This document shows, piece after piece, positions 3,133 to 11,950 of a stretch of 37,455 nt of DNA (position 1 is the stretch's first letter; every line of letters begins with the position of its first letter). The stretch lies in UHGV virus genome UHGV-0248180; one strand, written 5' to 3'. Source of the stretch: a virus. Below the pieces are notes generated by a model that saw nothing but the letters and a program-made list of their open reading frames with translations, searched no databases and was not told where the DNA came from. Both the position numbers and the translations under genes were made by a program.

Positions 3133-4101
<969 letters not shown>

Positions 4102-4506: not shown

Positions 4507-4980
4507 ATGAAAACATATCAAGAATTTATTACTGAAGCAGCTATTAATTCTCAAATTATTGCTGAATCTTTTACTGATCTTTTGAAATTTAAAAAAGGAC
4601 AGAAAATCACTGCTGTATTGGATGACGGTACAGAAGTTGAGATGGATGTACAAGGATATAATTATGCAGTAGATGGAAAACTGTATAATAAATCTCATGC
4701 TAAATTTGATTCATTTGACGACTTTGTTAATACAGTTGAAGATGAAAAAACTCGTAGATCCATTGCAACGGGTGATGCTAAGGTTCTTATGGCACATGGC
4801 CATGAACGCATTCGCGCTAAGCAGAATAAAATGGGTGAAGATAATTTTGCATTAGTTGGTTATCAATCTGGTAAACAAACTTATGGTTATCAACGTACTG
4901 CTACCATGTATAACAAAAATGGTAAAATTGCCTTTGTGAATAGTAAAGGTTCTATTCAGTACGTCAAATCATTCAAATAA
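4507..4980 (+). CDS. Capsid-targeted internal protein (157 aa) with N-terminal CTS MKTYQEFITE
   Basis: CTS motif; leader and RBS nearly identical to the preceding ip gene. Confidence 0.75.
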   Translation: MKTYQEFITEAAINSQIIAESFTDLLKFKKGQKITAVLDDGTEVEMDVQGYNYAVDGKLYNKSHAKFDSFDDFVNTVEDEKTRRSIATGDAKVLMAHGHERIRAKQNKMGEDNFALVGYQSGKQTYGYQRTATMYNKNGKIAFVNSKGSIQYVKSFK

Positions 4981-5073: not shown

Positions 5074-5661
5074 ATGGACAATTCATGCGCCATGGAATGG
5101 CCCAAATTTAGAGAGAATAAAATGAGAACATTTTTAACTGGCCCGTATCTATCCCTGATGAATGCTTTTACACACCATTCTGATGCTAGAGTAGAAGAAA
5201 TTTGTAAAAACGAATATATCCCGCCATTTGAAGAATTACTTAAACAGTACTGCACACTTCGTATAGATGGTGGACGTCAATCCGGTAAATCAATTGCTGT
5301 GACTAACTTTGCTGCTAATTGGCTGTATGATGGCGGAACAGTTATTGTTCTTTCTAATACTTCAGCTTACGCTAAAATTTCTGCAAATAACATTAAAAAG
5401 GAATTTTCGCGTTATTCTAATGATGATATACGTTTTCGTTTATTTACTGATTCTGTGCGCAGTTTTATTGGTAATAAAGGAAGTAAGTTCAGAGGTTTAT
5501 CGCTTTCGCGAATTTTGTATATAATTGATGAGCCTGTCAAATCTCCTGATATGGATAAGATTTATAGCGTCCATATTGACACTGTACACTACTGCTGTAA
5601 TAGTAAATGTTGCATTGGTGGTATTACTCGTCCGCAGTTTTTCGTAATCGGAATGCAATGA
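5074..5661 (+). CDS. hypothetical P-loop NTPase-like protein (Walker A GGRQSGKS, Walker B-like ILYIIDEP)
   Basis: ORF; motifs read from translation; alternative start at ATG 5122; occupies the position where T4 carries denV. Confidence 0.55.
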   Translation: MDNSCAMEWPKFRENKMRTFLTGPYLSLMNAFTHHSDARVEEICKNEYIPPFEELLKQYCTLRIDGGRQSGKSIAVTNFAANWLYDGGTVIVLSNTSAYAKISANNIKKEFSRYSNDDIRFRLFTDSVRSFIGNKGSKFRGLSLSRILYIIDEPVKSPDMDKIYSVHIDTVHYCCNSKCCIGGITRPQFFVIGMQ

Positions 5662-5994: not shown

Positions 5995-6357
5995 ATGAAA
6001 GCATATCAAATTCTTGAAGGCACACATAAAGGTACTATTTATTTTGAAGATGGTATTCAAGCACGAATTATTGTCTCTAAAACCTTTAAAGAGGACTCTT
6101 TTGTAGACCCAGAAATTTTCTATGGTTTGCATGCCCGTGAAATTGAAATTGAGCAACAGCCTACAGTTAAAATTGAAGGTGGTCAACACCTGAACGTTAA
6201 CGTTCTGCGTCGCGAAACTCTGGAAGATGCAGTTAAGCATCCGGAAAAATATCCGCAGCTGACCATCCGTGTATCCGGTTATGCAGTTCGCTTTAACTCT
6301 CTGACTCCGGAACAGCAGCGCGACGTTATTGCTCGTACCTTTACTGAGAGTTTGTAA
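5995..6357 (+). CDS. Autonomous glycyl-radical cofactor, GrcA/YfiD-like (120 aa)
   Basis: C-terminal ~65 aa ([60 protein letters not shown]) match E. coli GrcA as I recall it, including glycyl-radical motif RVSGY; codon usage of that segment is host-like. Confidence 0.9.
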
Positions 6358-7117: not shown

Positions 7118-7147
7118 GTTTACTTTTCCTCTTGACTGTGGTATAAT
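7118..7147 (+). promoter_or_regulatory. T4 early promoter upstream of regB (GTTTAC-N18-TGgTATAAT)
   Basis: GTTTAC 7118-7123; TG 7139-7140; TATAAT 7142-7147. Confidence 0.65.
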
Positions 7148-7174
7148 TTTTCTATCAGTTAAGAGGAGAATAAC

Positions 7175-7636
7175 ATGACTATCAATACAGAAGTTTTTAT
7201 CCGTCGAAATAAGCTTCGTCGTCACTTTGAGTCGGAGTTTCGTCAAATTAACAATGAGATTCGTGAGGCATCAAAAGCAGCAGGAGTCTCATCGTTTCAT
7301 CTAAAATATTCTCAGCATCTTCTTGATCGTGCAATTCAACGGGAGATTGATGAGACATATGTTTTTGAATTATTCCATAAAATAAAAGACCATGTTTTAG
7401 AAGTTAATGAATTCCTGAGTATGCCTCCACGTCCTGACATTGACGAGGATTTTATTGATGGGGTTGAATATCGTCCTGGGCGTTTGGAAATTACAGATGG
7501 AAATCTTTGGCTTGGATTTACGGTTTGTAAACCTAATGAGAAGTTCAAAAACCCGTCACTTCAATGTAGGATGGCAATTATCAACAGTCGTCGTTTACCA
7601 GGAAAGGCTTCTAAAGCAGTAATTAAAACTCAATGA
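7175..7636 (+). CDS. regB: RegB sequence-specific endoribonuclease (153 aa)
   Basis: Translation matches T4 RegB from memory; own Shine-Dalgarno contains the RegB target GGAG (7164-7167). Confidence 0.92.
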   Translation: MTINTEVFIRRNKLRRHFESEFRQINNEIREASKAAGVSSFHLKYSQHLLDRAIQREIDETYVFELFHKIKDHVLEVNEFLSMPPRPDIDEDFIDGVEYRPGRLEITDGNLWLGFTVCKPNEKFKNPSLQCRMAIINSRRLPGKASKAVIKTQ

Positions 7637-7643
7637 GGTAAGC

Positions 7644-8189
7644 ATGAGAAAAGCACTACTCGCTGGTCTATTGGCCATTTCAATGATGGCACATAGCTCC
7701 GAGCATACTTTCAGTAATGTCCAACTCGATAACATGCGTTACGCGTATCAATTCGGGGAACAATTTTCTAAGGATGGAAAATATAAAACACACAAAAATA
7801 TCCACAAGAGCGGATTAGGTCATATAATGGCTGCTATTTTATGGCAAGAAAGCTCTGGCGGAGTTAATTTAAAATCTAAACCAAAGCATCACGCCTATGG
7901 AATGTTCCAAAATTATTTGCCTACTATGCGAGCAAGAGTTAAGGAACTTGGTTATAATATGACCGATGCTGAAATAAAAAGAATGTTGAATAAACGGTCC
8001 AATTCAGCTTCCTGGGCGTACATTGAACTTTCTTATTGGTTAAATATACATAAGGGCGATATAAGAAAAGCAATATCCTCTTATAATTCGGGATGGAATG
8101 TTAAAGCAGGTTCTAAATATGCTTCTGAAGTCCTAGAAAAGGCTAATTACCTTAAAAATAATAAACTTTTGGAAATAGTAAATGACTAA
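7644..8189 (+). CDS. Secreted lytic transglycosylase-like protein (SLT domain), signal peptide
   Basis: N-terminal signal peptide; SLT motifs ES (ILWQESSGG), GMFQ (GLMQ-like), YNSG (AYNAG-like). Confidence 0.75.
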   Translation: MRKALLAGLLAISMMAHSSEHTFSNVQLDNMRYAYQFGEQFSKDGKYKTHKNIHKSGLGHIMAAILWQESSGGVNLKSKPKHHAYGMFQNYLPTMRARVKELGYNMTDAEIKRMLNKRSNSASWAYIELSYWLNIHKGDIRKAISSYNSGWNVKAGSKYASEVLEKANYLKNNKLLEIVND

Positions 8190-8523
8190 AATTTTGGTTT
8201 TATGTATAGGATTAATTTCATTTTCTGCGTTAGCAGATACATCATATACTGAAATTAGAGAATATGTAAACCGTACTGCAGCGGATTATTGCGGGAAAAA
8301 TAAAGCATGTCAAGCTGAATTTGCGCAGAAATTAATATATGCATATAAAGACGGAGAAAGAGATAAATCAAGCAGATACAAAAATGATACATTGTTAAAA
8401 CGATATGCTAAAAAGTGGAATACCTTAGAATGTTCAGTTGCGAAGGAGAAAGATAAAGCCGCTTGTCATTCAATGGTTGACCGTTTGGTAGATTCTTATA
8501 ATCGAGGATTGAGTACTAGATGA
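8182..8523 (+). CDS. vs: hypothetical protein with N-terminal signal-like segment; positional candidate for vs (valyl-tRNA synthetase modifier)
   Basis: Synteny (regB - vs.1 - vs in T4) and size only; sequence identity not verified. Confidence 0.45.
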   Translation: MTKILVLCIGLISFSALADTSYTEIREYVNRTAADYCGKNKACQAEFAQKLIYAYKDGERDKSSRYKNDTLLKRYAKKWNTLECSVAKEKDKAACHSMVDRLVDSYNRGLSTR

Positions 8524-8987
8524 TTGTAAAATATATCAAGGGCGATATTGTCGCCCTTTTCGCTGAAGGTAAAAATATTGCGCATGGATGCAATTGTTTT
8601 CATACTATGGGTTCAGGCGTAGCGGGTCAATTAACCAAAGCTTTCCCTAAAATTTTGGAAGCTGATAAATTACAGACTGAATGGGGTGATGTAACTAAAC
8701 TCGGTTCTTACTCAGTCTATGAAAAATACTTTAGGACTCATAAAGCGTATTGCTTCAACCTTTATACTCAATTTCAACCAGGGCCAAATTTTGAGTATTC
8801 CGCTTTAATGAATTGTATGTTAGAATTAAATGAGTTTGGTGAAAATAAACTGATTAAACCTACAATCTATATGCCTAGGATTGGTGCAGGCATAGGTAAA
8901 GGGAACTGGGATATTATTGAGGGGATTTTAGATACATATTCCTCTAAATTAGAAATTGTGATTGTTGATTGGGAACCGTTATTATGA
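8520..8987 (+). CDS. Macro-domain protein (putative ADP-ribose binding/hydrolase)
   Basis: Motifs HGCNCFHTMGSGVAGQ and PRIGAGIGKGNW resemble macro-domain diphosphate-binding loops (NAAN..GGGV and GIGTGIYG). Confidence 0.7.
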   Translation: MIVKYIKGDIVALFAEGKNIAHGCNCFHTMGSGVAGQLTKAFPKILEADKLQTEWGDVTKLGSYSVYEKYFRTHKAYCFNLYTQFQPGPNFEYSALMNCMLELNEFGENKLIKPTIYMPRIGAGIGKGNWDIIEGILDTYSSKLEIVIVDWEPLL

Positions 8988-9937: not shown

Positions 9938-10519
9938 ATGGCGAGTTTAATTTTTACTTATGCAGCAATGAATGCTGGAAAATCTGCTTCTCTTTTGACT
10001 GCTGCACATAATTATAAAGAACGCGGAATGGGTGTATTAGTTCTTAAACCTGCTATTGATACTCGCGATTCTGTCTGTGAAGTCGTTTCTCGCATTGGAA
10101 TTAAACAGGAAGCGAATATTATTACGGATGATATGGATATTTTTGAGTTCTATAAATGGGCTGAAGCACAAAAAGATATTCATTGCGTATTTGTAGATGA
10201 AGCTCAGTTTTTAAAAACTGAACAGGTGCACCAATTAAGCCGAATTGTTGATACATATAATGTTCCTGTTATGGCTTATGGATTAAGGACTGATTTCGCT
10301 GGAAAATTGTTTGAAGGTTCTAAAGAACTTTTAGCGATTGCAGATAAACTTATTGAACTAAAGGCAGTTTGTCATTGCGGCAAAAAAGCGATTATGACAG
10401 CTCGATTAATGGAAGATGGAACACCAGTTAAAGAAGGTAATCAAATCTGTATTGGTGATGAAATTTATGTTTCTTTGTGCAGAAAACATTGGAATGAATT
10501 AACTAAAAAGCTTGGTTAG
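9938..10519 (+). CDS. tk: Thymidine kinase (193 aa)
   Basis: P-loop MNAGKS, zinc ribbon CHCGKKA..CRKH; matches T4 Tk from memory. Confidence 0.95.
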   Translation: MASLIFTYAAMNAGKSASLLTAAHNYKERGMGVLVLKPAIDTRDSVCEVVSRIGIKQEANIITDDMDIFEFYKWAEAQKDIHCVFVDEAQFLKTEQVHQLSRIVDTYNVPVMAYGLRTDFAGKLFEGSKELLAIADKLIELKAVCHCGKKAIMTARLMEDGTPVKEGNQICIGDEIYVSLCRKHWNELTKKLG

Positions 10520-11747: not shown

Positions 11748-11950
11748 TGATTAGTATCGAACAAGCGGATAAAATTAAGGAATTGGTAGCTTTAATTCGT
11801 AAAGCAGACGAGGAACTTAGTGACTTTGCTTGGTTTTCGTCAGGCATTGCAAATAAAGGCATTGATGAACTTGAAGCTAAAGTTGATAATGCTTTAGAAG
11901 CGTTAGATATGTTTCTTGATGAAATTATCGATCATAATACGAGAGTTTAA
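11747..11950 (+). CDS. hypothetical small acidic helical protein (67 aa), paralog family
   Basis: ORF; TAATG overlap; junction GGTGGAATAATGA. Confidence 0.5.
   Translation: MISIEQADKIKELVALIRKADEELSDFAWFSSGIANKGIDELEAKVDNALEALDMFLDEIIDHNTRV

Follow-up and report, generated by a model that had tools for sequence, protein, structure and literature searches.

The DNA analysed here, called the window below, is the whole 37,455-nucleotide stretch of the UHGV virus genome UHGV-0248180. The open reading frame under study encodes a protein that is 100% identical to Vs.1 of phage T4 (UniProt P13311, Y06E_BPT4; ORF 61.4 of X04567), which confirms it as a real gene, T4 vs.1. The surrounding genes keep the T4 order, with regB, vs.1, vs and tk.4 followed at some distance by tk (Table 1). 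The best DNA match to the 1.5 kb around vs.1 is Escherichia phage vB_EcoM_G2540 at 99.1% identity, and about 500 further records match the same region at 95-99%. The window thus derives from a T4-like Tequatrovirus and a close relative of T4. While the Vs.1 protein shows no difference from that of T4, Vs has 113 amino acids in the window and 115 in T4, where we take its gene to be ORF 60.9.

The genes are tightly packed. In the window the first 8 nt of vs are also the last 8 nt of vs.1, and no strong Shine-Dalgarno match can be read ahead of the vs start. In phages VR7 and PM2 the two genes abut exactly.

The earlier note had placed vs.1 in an early operon running from regB to vs. This agrees with the position of the gene, which has regB upstream and vs downstream, and with the time-resolved T4 omics study of Wolfram-Schauerte et al., in which vs.1 RNA belongs to the class "early" and the protein to the class "middle" (PMC9697503). 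Label-free quantification (LFQ) values for Vs.1 (P13311) in that study are zero at the first time points, become positive from about 3-5 min and are highest at the last point, 30 min, taking the order of the time columns as inferred from the methods of the paper (PMC9697503). A candidate early promoter for a regB-vs.1-vs-tk.4 transcript lies ahead of regB, although in our consensus scan sites of this kind were no more frequent than in shuffled sequence. A scan of the window revealed no MotA-type middle promoter near vs.1, the closest being at position 11890. Likewise, a scan for GGAG found no RegB motif in the vs.1 ribosome-binding site (GAGG). The Shine-Dalgarno sequence of regB itself contains GGAG (7165-7168).

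Table 1. Positions of genes, candidate signals and coding motifs around vs.1 in the window
Feature	Position	Strand	Basis and remarks
e, T4 endolysin (lysozyme) gene	3607..4101	+	same strand as vs.1, 3.5 kb upstream
Candidate sigma-70-like promoter (TTTACT, 17 nt, TATAAT, TG extension)	7119..7147	+	consensus scan, 10/12; pattern match only
regB, endoribonuclease gene	7175..7636	+	Pfam REGB_T4, E = 5.9e-69; directly upstream of vs.1
Shine-Dalgarno GAGG of vs.1	7635..7638	+	sequence read; five bases 5' of the ATG, overlaps the regB stop codon
vs.1 CDS	7644..8189	+	ATG 7644, TAA 8187-8189; 181 aa; single GH23/SLT domain after predicted signal peptide
Predicted Sec signal peptide, residues 1-18 (MRKALLAGLLAISMMAHS)	7644..7697	+	heuristic n/h/c analysis; cleavage predicted between AHS and SEH
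Glu69-Ser70 codons (QESS, residues 68-71)	7848..7853	+	predicted catalytic acid; Glu69 = 7848-7850
GMFQ, residues 86-89	7899..7910	+	counterpart of GLMQ in family-1 lytic transglycosylases
YNSG, residues 147-150	8082..8093	+	counterpart of AYNAG
vs, annotated "valyl-tRNA synthetase modifier"	8182..8523	+	ORF; PHROG 1256; downstream of vs.1
tk.4, macro-domain gene	8520..8987		ORF list/Pfam/PHROG annotation
tk	9938..10519		ORF list/Pfam/PHROG annotation

Signal peptide and catalytic domain of Vs.1

The Vs.1 protein begins with MRK, continues with ALLAGLLAISMMA and then reaches the predicted cleavage site, which has small residues at -3 and -1. This is the n/h/c layout of the signal peptide claimed in the earlier note. 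Signal peptides were scored with a home-made heuristic, under which the N-terminus has to be positively charged, contain a hydrophobic core and offer small residues at positions -3 and -1. By this heuristic the layout is present in all 26 close homologues and in 111 of the 119 full-length distant ones, and most of the distant homologues that fail look like mis-called or truncated starts. The N-terminal sequence itself diverges among the homologues while the layout stays constant. The uncharged N-terminal stretch of Vs.1 is 16 residues long, with a hydrophobic core of about 13, where a cleavable Sec signal peptide has an h-region of 7-15 residues. Only 2 of the 119 distant homologues carry a lipobox, and Vs.1 would therefore be a soluble protein rather than a lipoprotein. 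The predicted product of export and signal peptide cleavage has 163 amino acids, a mass of 18.8 kDa, a pI of 9.65 and no cysteine. Our literature search for biochemical assays or localisation studies of Vs.1 returned none.

The remainder of the protein is a single catalytic domain. Vs.1 scores 25.1 bits with the Pfam SLT profile PF01464, above its gathering cut-off of 21.3 (E = 1.4e-5), in an alignment that runs over residues 61-154 of the protein and positions 16-101 of the 117 in the profile. Precomputed PF01464 matches exist for several homologues, and "Transglycosylase SLT domain-containing protein" is the name given to several UniRef homologues and in several GenBank records. Among PHROG families, Vs.1 is assigned to family 600 ("unknown function", E = 2e-68), and its weaker matches are all SLT domains from phage lytic or endolysin-type proteins. 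Searches of NCBIfam and PADLOC gave no match for either Vs.1 or Vs, and a phmmer search of PDB sequences with Vs.1 found nothing. The best PDB match to the Vs.1 family profile was a g-type lysozyme with a non-significant E = 0.52.

The three SLT-family motifs named in the earlier note (QESS, GMFQ and YNSG) are all present, and their key positions are strongly conserved over 133 aligned representatives of the family. Glu69 is found in 133/133, followed by Ser in 124 of them and by Thr in the other 9. Gly86 (128/133), Tyr147 (132/133) and Gly150 (131/133) vary little, and Gly73 and Tyr159 are likewise invariant or almost so. Glu128, which is specific to this family, is kept in 116 of the representatives. 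The hairpin that follows Glu69 has no conserved Asp in these 133 sequences; the residues seen at position 84 are Ser, Ala and Asp, the last in just 27 of them.

Profile comparison with the SLT family, which the earlier note had suggested, gives a modest match. Aligned by hhalign to the catalytic domain of Slt70, taken from the E. coli K-12 slt gene, the Vs.1 family profile reaches a probability of 75% and E = 2.6e-5. In this alignment LWQESSGG stands opposite ARQESAWN, YGMFQ opposite SGLMQ, and SSYNSG opposite AAYNAG. Glu69 falls on Glu505 of the Slt70 precursor, or Glu478 of the mature enzyme, which is the catalytic acid of Slt70.

The predicted structure is consistent with these alignments. 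An AlphaFold2 model of Vs.1, built on 26 homologues (pLDDT 88.4, pTM 0.82), has a goose-type-lysozyme-like alpha-helical fold with a small beta-hairpin. Glu69 sits near the C-terminal end of a helix spanning residues 59-70 (boundaries assigned by DSSP on the model), and GMFQ lies within the hairpin. A Foldseek search with the model returned the same families again with weaker statistics. The sole low-confidence part of the model is the N-terminus, where pLDDT falls to about 53 over residues 1-20 and drops under 50 at residues 15-18. Such a combination of variable sequence and low model confidence is typical for signal peptides.

The fold and the catalytic motifs of Vs.1 are thereby established, and the protein is almost certainly a small cell-wall-cutting enzyme exported to the host periplasm. 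Both points on which the earlier note let its reading stand or fall, a predicted signal peptide and a conserved catalytic Glu, came out in its favour. The chemistry of Vs.1 is probably that of a transglycosylase and not of a hydrolase, because the family seems to lack the second catalytic carboxylate that sets hydrolytic lysozymes apart from family-1 lytic transglycosylases, with the family-specific Glu128 as a possible exception. However, sequence alone does not separate transglycosylase from muramidase chemistry.

The prediction itself is already known, having been in print since 2003-2006. Nolan et al. (2006) described the SLT similarity of vs.1 in six T4-like phages and cited earlier work, their reference 15, in which PSI-BLAST had matched T4 vs.1 to lysozyme (PMC1524935). 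Our sequence observation on vs.1 re-finds a published T4 annotation and therefore adds little to it.

Relatives of Vs.1

The Vs.1 family is widespread among large phages. A tblastn search identified it in 2014 of 50,697 phage records, which include Straboviridae, Ackermannviridae (for example Limestonevirus) and Felixounavirus. A profile search of 1.84 billion representatives yielded 428 clusters at E <= 0.001, nearly all of them stand-alone proteins of 150-220 amino acids. One repetitive protein of 2679 amino acids among the family matches (P0090) was set aside as a spurious low-complexity match. The signal peptide and the motifs are kept in the Felixounavirus and Limestonevirus homologues. 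Among the genomes that we inspected, the homologue always lies among non-structural genes, and in Felixounavirus HY02 it comes right after rIIA-rIIB. The T4-like clade has an insertion at residues 42-56 that is absent from the most distant members of the family alignment. Outside phages, a scan of genome contigs with patterns from that alignment produced 72 pattern matches, and none of these was confirmed.

Among the closest known counterparts of Vs.1 are E. coli and Pseudomonas lytic transglycosylases of family 1 (Slt70/Slt, MltC, MltD, MltE and MltF; PF01464, GH23). These share with Vs.1 the E-S motif, the GLMQ-like and AYNxG-like motifs, and the Tyr that follows (Tyr159 in Vs.1). They are periplasmic, as is predicted for Vs.1. 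However, sequence identity is only 13-19%, and Vs.1 has conserved residues of its own (Gln27, Glu128 and Trp132). Unlike these enzymes, Vs.1 consists of the catalytic domain alone (about 160 amino acids); superhelical, LysM and ABC-type accessory domains are all missing, as is a lipid anchor.

In architecture Vs.1 comes closest to EtgA, a small specialised transglycosylase of the EPEC type III system. Further small secreted lytic transglycosylases specialised for secretion systems are VirB1, P19, IpgF and IagB; of the whole group, our comparison covered EtgA. Enzymes of this type make local openings in the peptidoglycan for a trans-envelope machine and rely on a partner for their recruitment, which for EtgA is EscI. 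We know of no trans-envelope machine or recruiting partner for Vs.1, and the genes near vs.1 (regB, vs, tk.4 and tk) include none of a secretion system. In addition, tblastn of Vs.1 against 72,556 plasmids gave no match, so the plasmid-borne specialised transglycosylases are not closely related to Vs.1.

Phages also carry SLT domains in virion entry proteins or holin-dependent endolysins, as in T7 gp16, phiKZ gp144 and phi6 P5. Vs.1 differs from these in being stand-alone, predicted to be exported by Sec, early, and dispensable according to the transposon data described below. Phage endolysins are needed for lysis, made late and gated by a holin or a SAR anchor. We rejected Vs.1 as a holin-dependent or SAR endolysin on account of its non-essentiality, its early RNA, the appearance of the protein from 3-5 min and its core of about 13 residues, which is not of SAR length and is followed by a predicted cleavage site.

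A parallel within T4 is Spackle (Sp), which is not an enzyme but a small, early, exported periplasmic inhibitor of the gp5 lysozyme. Like the predicted Vs.1, it is an early T4 protein that a signal peptide sends to the periplasm for a process related to peptidoglycan. We found no relation in sequence or fold between Spackle and either Vs.1 or Vs. In a transposon study of T4 (HIDEN-SEQ), sp is non-essential, as is vs.1 (10.1101/2025.11.20.689424).

Transposon insertions and the overlapping gene vs

The HIDEN-SEQ preprint classifies both vs.1 (46/52 TA sites hit) and vs (30/32) as "Non-essential" in T4 (10.1101/2025.11.20.689424). The insertions are nevertheless sparse. In LB, reads per TA site are 22.6 for vs.1 and 26.6 for vs, compared with 179 for regB, 652 for vs.3, 265 for vs.4, 290 for tk.4 and 767 for tk.3 (10.1101/2025.11.20.689424). 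The orthologs in phage Bas37 give a similar picture, with 73.8 for vs.1 and 23.5 for vs against 324 for regB and 326 for tk.4 (10.1101/2025.11.20.689424). In these two phages, insertions in vs.1 and vs are 4-14 times rarer than in neighbouring genes, a measure that depends also on transposition bias.

The same source compares growth media. On M9-glucose relative to LB, vs.1 insertions drop with a log2 fold change (log2FC) of -0.87 (p = 0.0055, adjusted p = 0.155), and vs insertions with a log2FC of -2.19 (adjusted p about 0) (10.1101/2025.11.20.689424). In the preprint, vs is the strongest M9-glucose gene and its defect was confirmed by a clean knockout (10.1101/2025.11.20.689424). The vs gene therefore has a phenotype of its own, and the fitness signature of vs.1 may reflect, wholly or partly, polarity on vs. 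Insertions in vs.1 could act through vs because the genes overlap by 8 nt and vs lacks a strong Shine-Dalgarno sequence. On the other hand, insertions in regB, which lies further upstream, are not depleted, and this argues against simple transcriptional polarity.

The product of vs was compared over 8 homologues. All 8 have a signal-peptide-like N-terminus, and four cysteines (C37, C43, C84 and C95) are invariant. In the predicted structure (pLDDT 74) these cysteines flank two helix-helix loops of a four-helix bundle, and the predicted mature protein has a mass of 11.0 kDa. Such traits are what one expects of an exported protein with disulfide bonds, and they are odd for the partner of a cytoplasmic synthetase.

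We tried several ways of relating Vs to known proteins. A likeness to known inhibitors of lysozymes or transglycosylases was rejected, since the Vs model gave only generic helical-bundle matches with E = 1.5 or worse. A faint lead towards DUF1311/LprI was not supported by Pfam scans of the 8 homologues. We also rejected the idea that a transglycosylase gene is paired with a secreted downstream partner beyond the T4-like phages, as the proteins encoded downstream in Felixounavirus HY02 and Limestonevirus Ds25CZ have no signal peptide.

Possible roles of Vs.1 during infection

Taken together, Vs.1 is probably a soluble, Sec-exported periplasmic lytic transglycosylase of family 1 that serves as an accessory fitness factor and not as the main lysis enzyme. 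The early promoters would transcribe vs.1 together with regB, vs and tk.4, and the gene would be translated from its own GAGG ribosome-binding site. Sec would then export the protein, with cleavage of the 18-residue signal peptide, and the soluble 18.8-kDa enzyme would build up in the periplasm of the host, beginning about 3-5 min post infection and continuing until lysis. There, Glu69 would act on the host sacculus by protonating its MurNAc-beta-1,4-GlcNAc glycosidic bonds. Since the Vs.1 family seems to lack a second conserved carboxylate, we propose that ring closure by the MurNAc C6 hydroxyl follows and leaves 1,6-anhydro-MurNAc ends. The net result would be a gradual cutting or loosening of the peptidoglycan of the infected cell. 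Phages growing in rich medium on E. coli K-12 would not depend on such an activity, but it would raise their fitness, with a larger gain on some natural hosts. The interpretation in the earlier note is thus supported in part. General envelope remodelling, which it had raised, would be a plausible role, whereas for its other suggestion, superinfection, we found no evidence either here or in the literature searched.

A predicted early-exported peptidoglycan cutter is encoded by about 2000 sequenced large virulent myoviruses (T4-like, Vi1-like and Felix O1-like). Its export is predicted to occur within minutes of infection, long before lysis, and what purpose this serves is a biological question. 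In public transposon data, insertions in vs.1 go with a mild but reproducible fitness cost in both T4 and Bas37, and one uropathogenic strain shows a significant cost specific to that host. Understanding the role of Vs.1 would shed light on the way in which phages condition the host envelope during infection, and it could matter for host range on clinical isolates.

An alternative is that Vs.1 is an auxiliary lysis enzyme which, though made early, pre-weakens the sacculus or complements gpe at lysis. The earlier note had described vs.1 as far from the lysis genes, but this does not hold, since only 3.5 kb separate vs.1 from the endolysin gene e, upstream on the same strand, a position that would suit a part in lysis. 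To our knowledge, however, T4 has no lysis cassette, with e, t, rI, rIII and the spanin genes being scattered, and the distance to lysis genes is therefore uninformative about the function of vs.1. Also in keeping with a part in lysis are the endolysin-type SLT domains among the weak PHROG matches and the continued accumulation of Vs.1, which peaks at the last time point of 30 min. A lysis function was also suggested by Nolan et al. (2006), in the words "some role in cell lysis" (PMC1524935). In contrast, e and t are almost free of insertions in the available HIDEN-SEQ tables (10.1101/2025.11.20.689424), whereas 46 of the 52 TA sites in vs.1 were hit. From this difference in tolerance, as far as the accessible data show it, we conclude that Vs.1 cannot replace gpe. 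Moreover, a Sec-exported periplasmic enzyme present from 3-5 min is not gated by a holin, and its activity would therefore not be timed to lysis. In Felixounavirus and Limestonevirus the homologues are found among non-structural genes, where no neighbour is annotated as a lysis gene and most are hypothetical. An auxiliary role in lysis is for these reasons unlikely.

Alternatively, Vs.1 could be a host-range or counter-defence factor that alters the envelope against a host-specific barrier and is needed on certain natural hosts only. Such a barrier might be a defence associated with the envelope, an unusual context of peptidoglycan or capsule, or a signal carried by peptidoglycan fragments. 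The observation that invites this idea comes from the HIDEN-SEQ comparison of the uropathogenic isolate CFE299 with K-12, in which 11 T4 genes, vs.1 among them, are significantly depleted on CFE299 (for vs.1, log2FC -1.20, adjusted p = 0.015; 10.1101/2025.11.20.689424). Early neighbours of vs.1 also include proven counter-defence genes, namely tk.4 (AdfM), acting against DarTG2, and nrdC.1, acting against Septu. The effect on CFE299 is small, however, at about 2.3-fold, and vs shows a similar though non-significant drop in the same data (log2FC -1.04; 10.1101/2025.11.20.689424). The depletion could therefore be a general fitness cost that is amplified on a harder host. Insertions in vs.1 are under-represented already on K-12. 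We found no PADLOC match or other link of Vs.1 to a defence system, and vs.1 goes unmentioned by the HIDEN-SEQ authors in the text of the preprint (10.1101/2025.11.20.689424). A dedicated host-range or counter-defence function is on this evidence quite unlikely.

The gene vs may also be a functional partner of vs.1. In this reading, which we consider quite unlikely, the small exported, disulfide-stapled four-helix Vs would regulate, inhibit or target Vs.1, and the two would make up a two-protein periplasmic module. The arrangement of the genes agrees with it, given the 8-nt overlap in the window and the exact abutment in VR7 and PM2, as do the signal-peptide-like N-terminus (8/8) and the four invariant cysteines of Vs. 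In the transposon data, a signature of low counts in vs.1 and vs is common to T4 and Bas37, and both genes go down in M9 and on CFE299. Spackle, as a small periplasmic inhibitor of the gp5 lysozyme, provides a precedent within T4. Against such a module, polarity can explain the signature shared by vs.1 and vs, and the minimal-medium defect of the vs knockout is compatible with a role in translation. Vs occurs in 796 phage records compared with 2014 for the Vs.1 family, and the gene that follows the vs.1 homologue in Felixounavirus and Limestonevirus does not encode a secreted protein. Furthermore, the Vs model (pLDDT 74) resembles no known lysozyme inhibitor, and DUF1311/LprI is unsupported.

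We regard it as quite unlikely that vs.1 and vs form a periplasmic pair specific to Tevenvirinae and that the label "valyl-tRNA synthetase modifier" is incomplete or mis-assigned. The label would become questionable because a protein with a conserved signal peptide and four invariant cysteines should, as long as cells are intact, be kept away from a cytoplasmic synthetase. If the pair were real, the M9 and host-specific defects would reflect the remodelling or recycling of peptidoglycan during infection and not translation.

Finally, it is very improbable that Vs.1 is something other than a free periplasmic enzyme, whether held by an uncleaved signal anchor or SAR-type tether, as the Ala-, Gly- and Ser-rich h-region ALLAGLLAISMMA might suggest by its resemblance to SAR domains, or acting as an inactive peptidoglycan binder. 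The 16 uncharged residues, with a core of about 13, are too short to span a membrane, and the small-residue site at -3/-1 is conserved after the core in 26/26 homologues. The catalytic Glu and the family motifs are invariant over 133 diverged representatives, which would be unexpected for a dead enzyme.

Export-like features of Vs

The gene 3' of vs.1, vs, begins within it, and the start of vs overlaps the stop of vs.1 by eight nucleotides. Vs looks like an exported protein, judging from features of its sequence. Its N-terminus is signal-peptide-like (MTKILVLCIGLISFSALA/DTS), and an N-terminus of this type is kept in all eight of the homologues (8/8), among which four Cys residues are invariant. 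The predicted mature protein has a size of 11.0 kDa, and the model of Vs is a predicted four-helix bundle. These export-like features are hard to reconcile with the binding of a cytoplasmic synthetase that the annotation of the gene implies.

Features of the window discussed in this part, with positions and strand
Feature	Position	Strand	Remarks
Four ORFs in a row, 201, 130, 124 and 162 aa	1325..3132	+	Common C-terminal motif F(V/I)x(E/D)(C/S)R...
e, T4 lysozyme gene, 164 aa	3607..4101	+	3.5 kb 5' of vs.1, same strand
Two neighbouring ORFs, 105 and 157 aa	4173..4490, 4507..4980	+	Common start MKTY(K/Q)EFI(A/T)E
195-aa ORF	5074..5661		Separated from regB by the vs.7 to vs.3 ORFs
vs.6	5995..6357	+	Named by position and literature; RVSGYAVRF motif near C-terminus
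GGAG	7165..7168	+	Inside the Shine-Dalgarno sequence of regB
vs	8182..8523	+	Annotated 'valyl-tRNA synthetase modifier'
tk.4	8520..8987	+	Macro-domain protein, Pfam Macro E = 2.9e-6

Conservation and fitness of vs.1

Several residues of Vs.1, the predicted exported lytic transglycosylase, are conserved outside the SLT motifs. Gln27 (codon 7722-7724) is invariant in both family alignments, which comprise 26 and 96 sequences. Trp132 (codon 8037-8039) is kept in 128 of 133 family members and Glu128 (codon 8025-8027) in 116 of the 133. An hhalign comparison with the E. coli lytic transglycosylase Slt70 shows that, in contrast, neither Glu128 nor Trp132 is conserved in that enzyme. Glu128 is a second conserved Glu in the lytic-transglycosylase-like Vs.1.

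Transposon-insertion data are available for phages T4 and Bas37 (HIDEN-SEQ preprint, bioRxiv 10.1101/2025.11.20.689424, supplements). Per TA site, insertions in vs.1 and in vs, which together span 7644..8523 of the window, are both 4-14-fold below those in flanking non-essential genes in the two phages. In the uropathogenic E. coli isolate CFE299, vs.1 is among 11 T4 genes with significant depletion (log2FC -1.20, adjusted p = 0.015). The text of the preprint does not mention vs.1.

RegB motif and operon make-up

The endoribonuclease RegB cleaves at GGAG, and regB is known to regulate itself. The occurrence of this motif in regB's own Shine-Dalgarno sequence agrees with such self-regulation. 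Reading of the sequence and a GGAG scan found no GGAG in the ribosome-binding sites of vs.1 and vs.

In T4, the tk.4 product is AdfM, a factor against DarTG2 (10.1101/2025.11.20.689424). Because tk.4 encodes this macro-domain protein, a counter-defence enzyme shares the operon with an RNase, Vs and a predicted exported muralytic enzyme.

ORFs upstream of regB

The four consecutive ORFs 5' of nudE and e look, from their sequences, like a tandem paralogous family, and the last three carry hydrophobic, membrane-like segments. T4 internal proteins (IPII/IPIII locus) carry a capsid-targeting sequence, which the common start of the two neighbouring ORFs that follow e resembles. The lengths of these two ORFs are presumably unlike those of the T4 proteins, a difference that would be in keeping with variability at an internal-protein locus.

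Among database phages, the one closest to the window over a 1.5-kb query (MK327936.1, 57578-67078) loses colinearity with it upstream of regB. In that phage the CDS immediately 5' of regB is 195 aa long and carries the label 'pyrimidine dimer DNA glycosylase'; in the window, the vs.7 to vs.3 ORFs separate the 195-aa ORF from regB. The T4 vs.6 product has a strong Pfam Gly_radical match (Nolan et al. 2006, PMC1524935).
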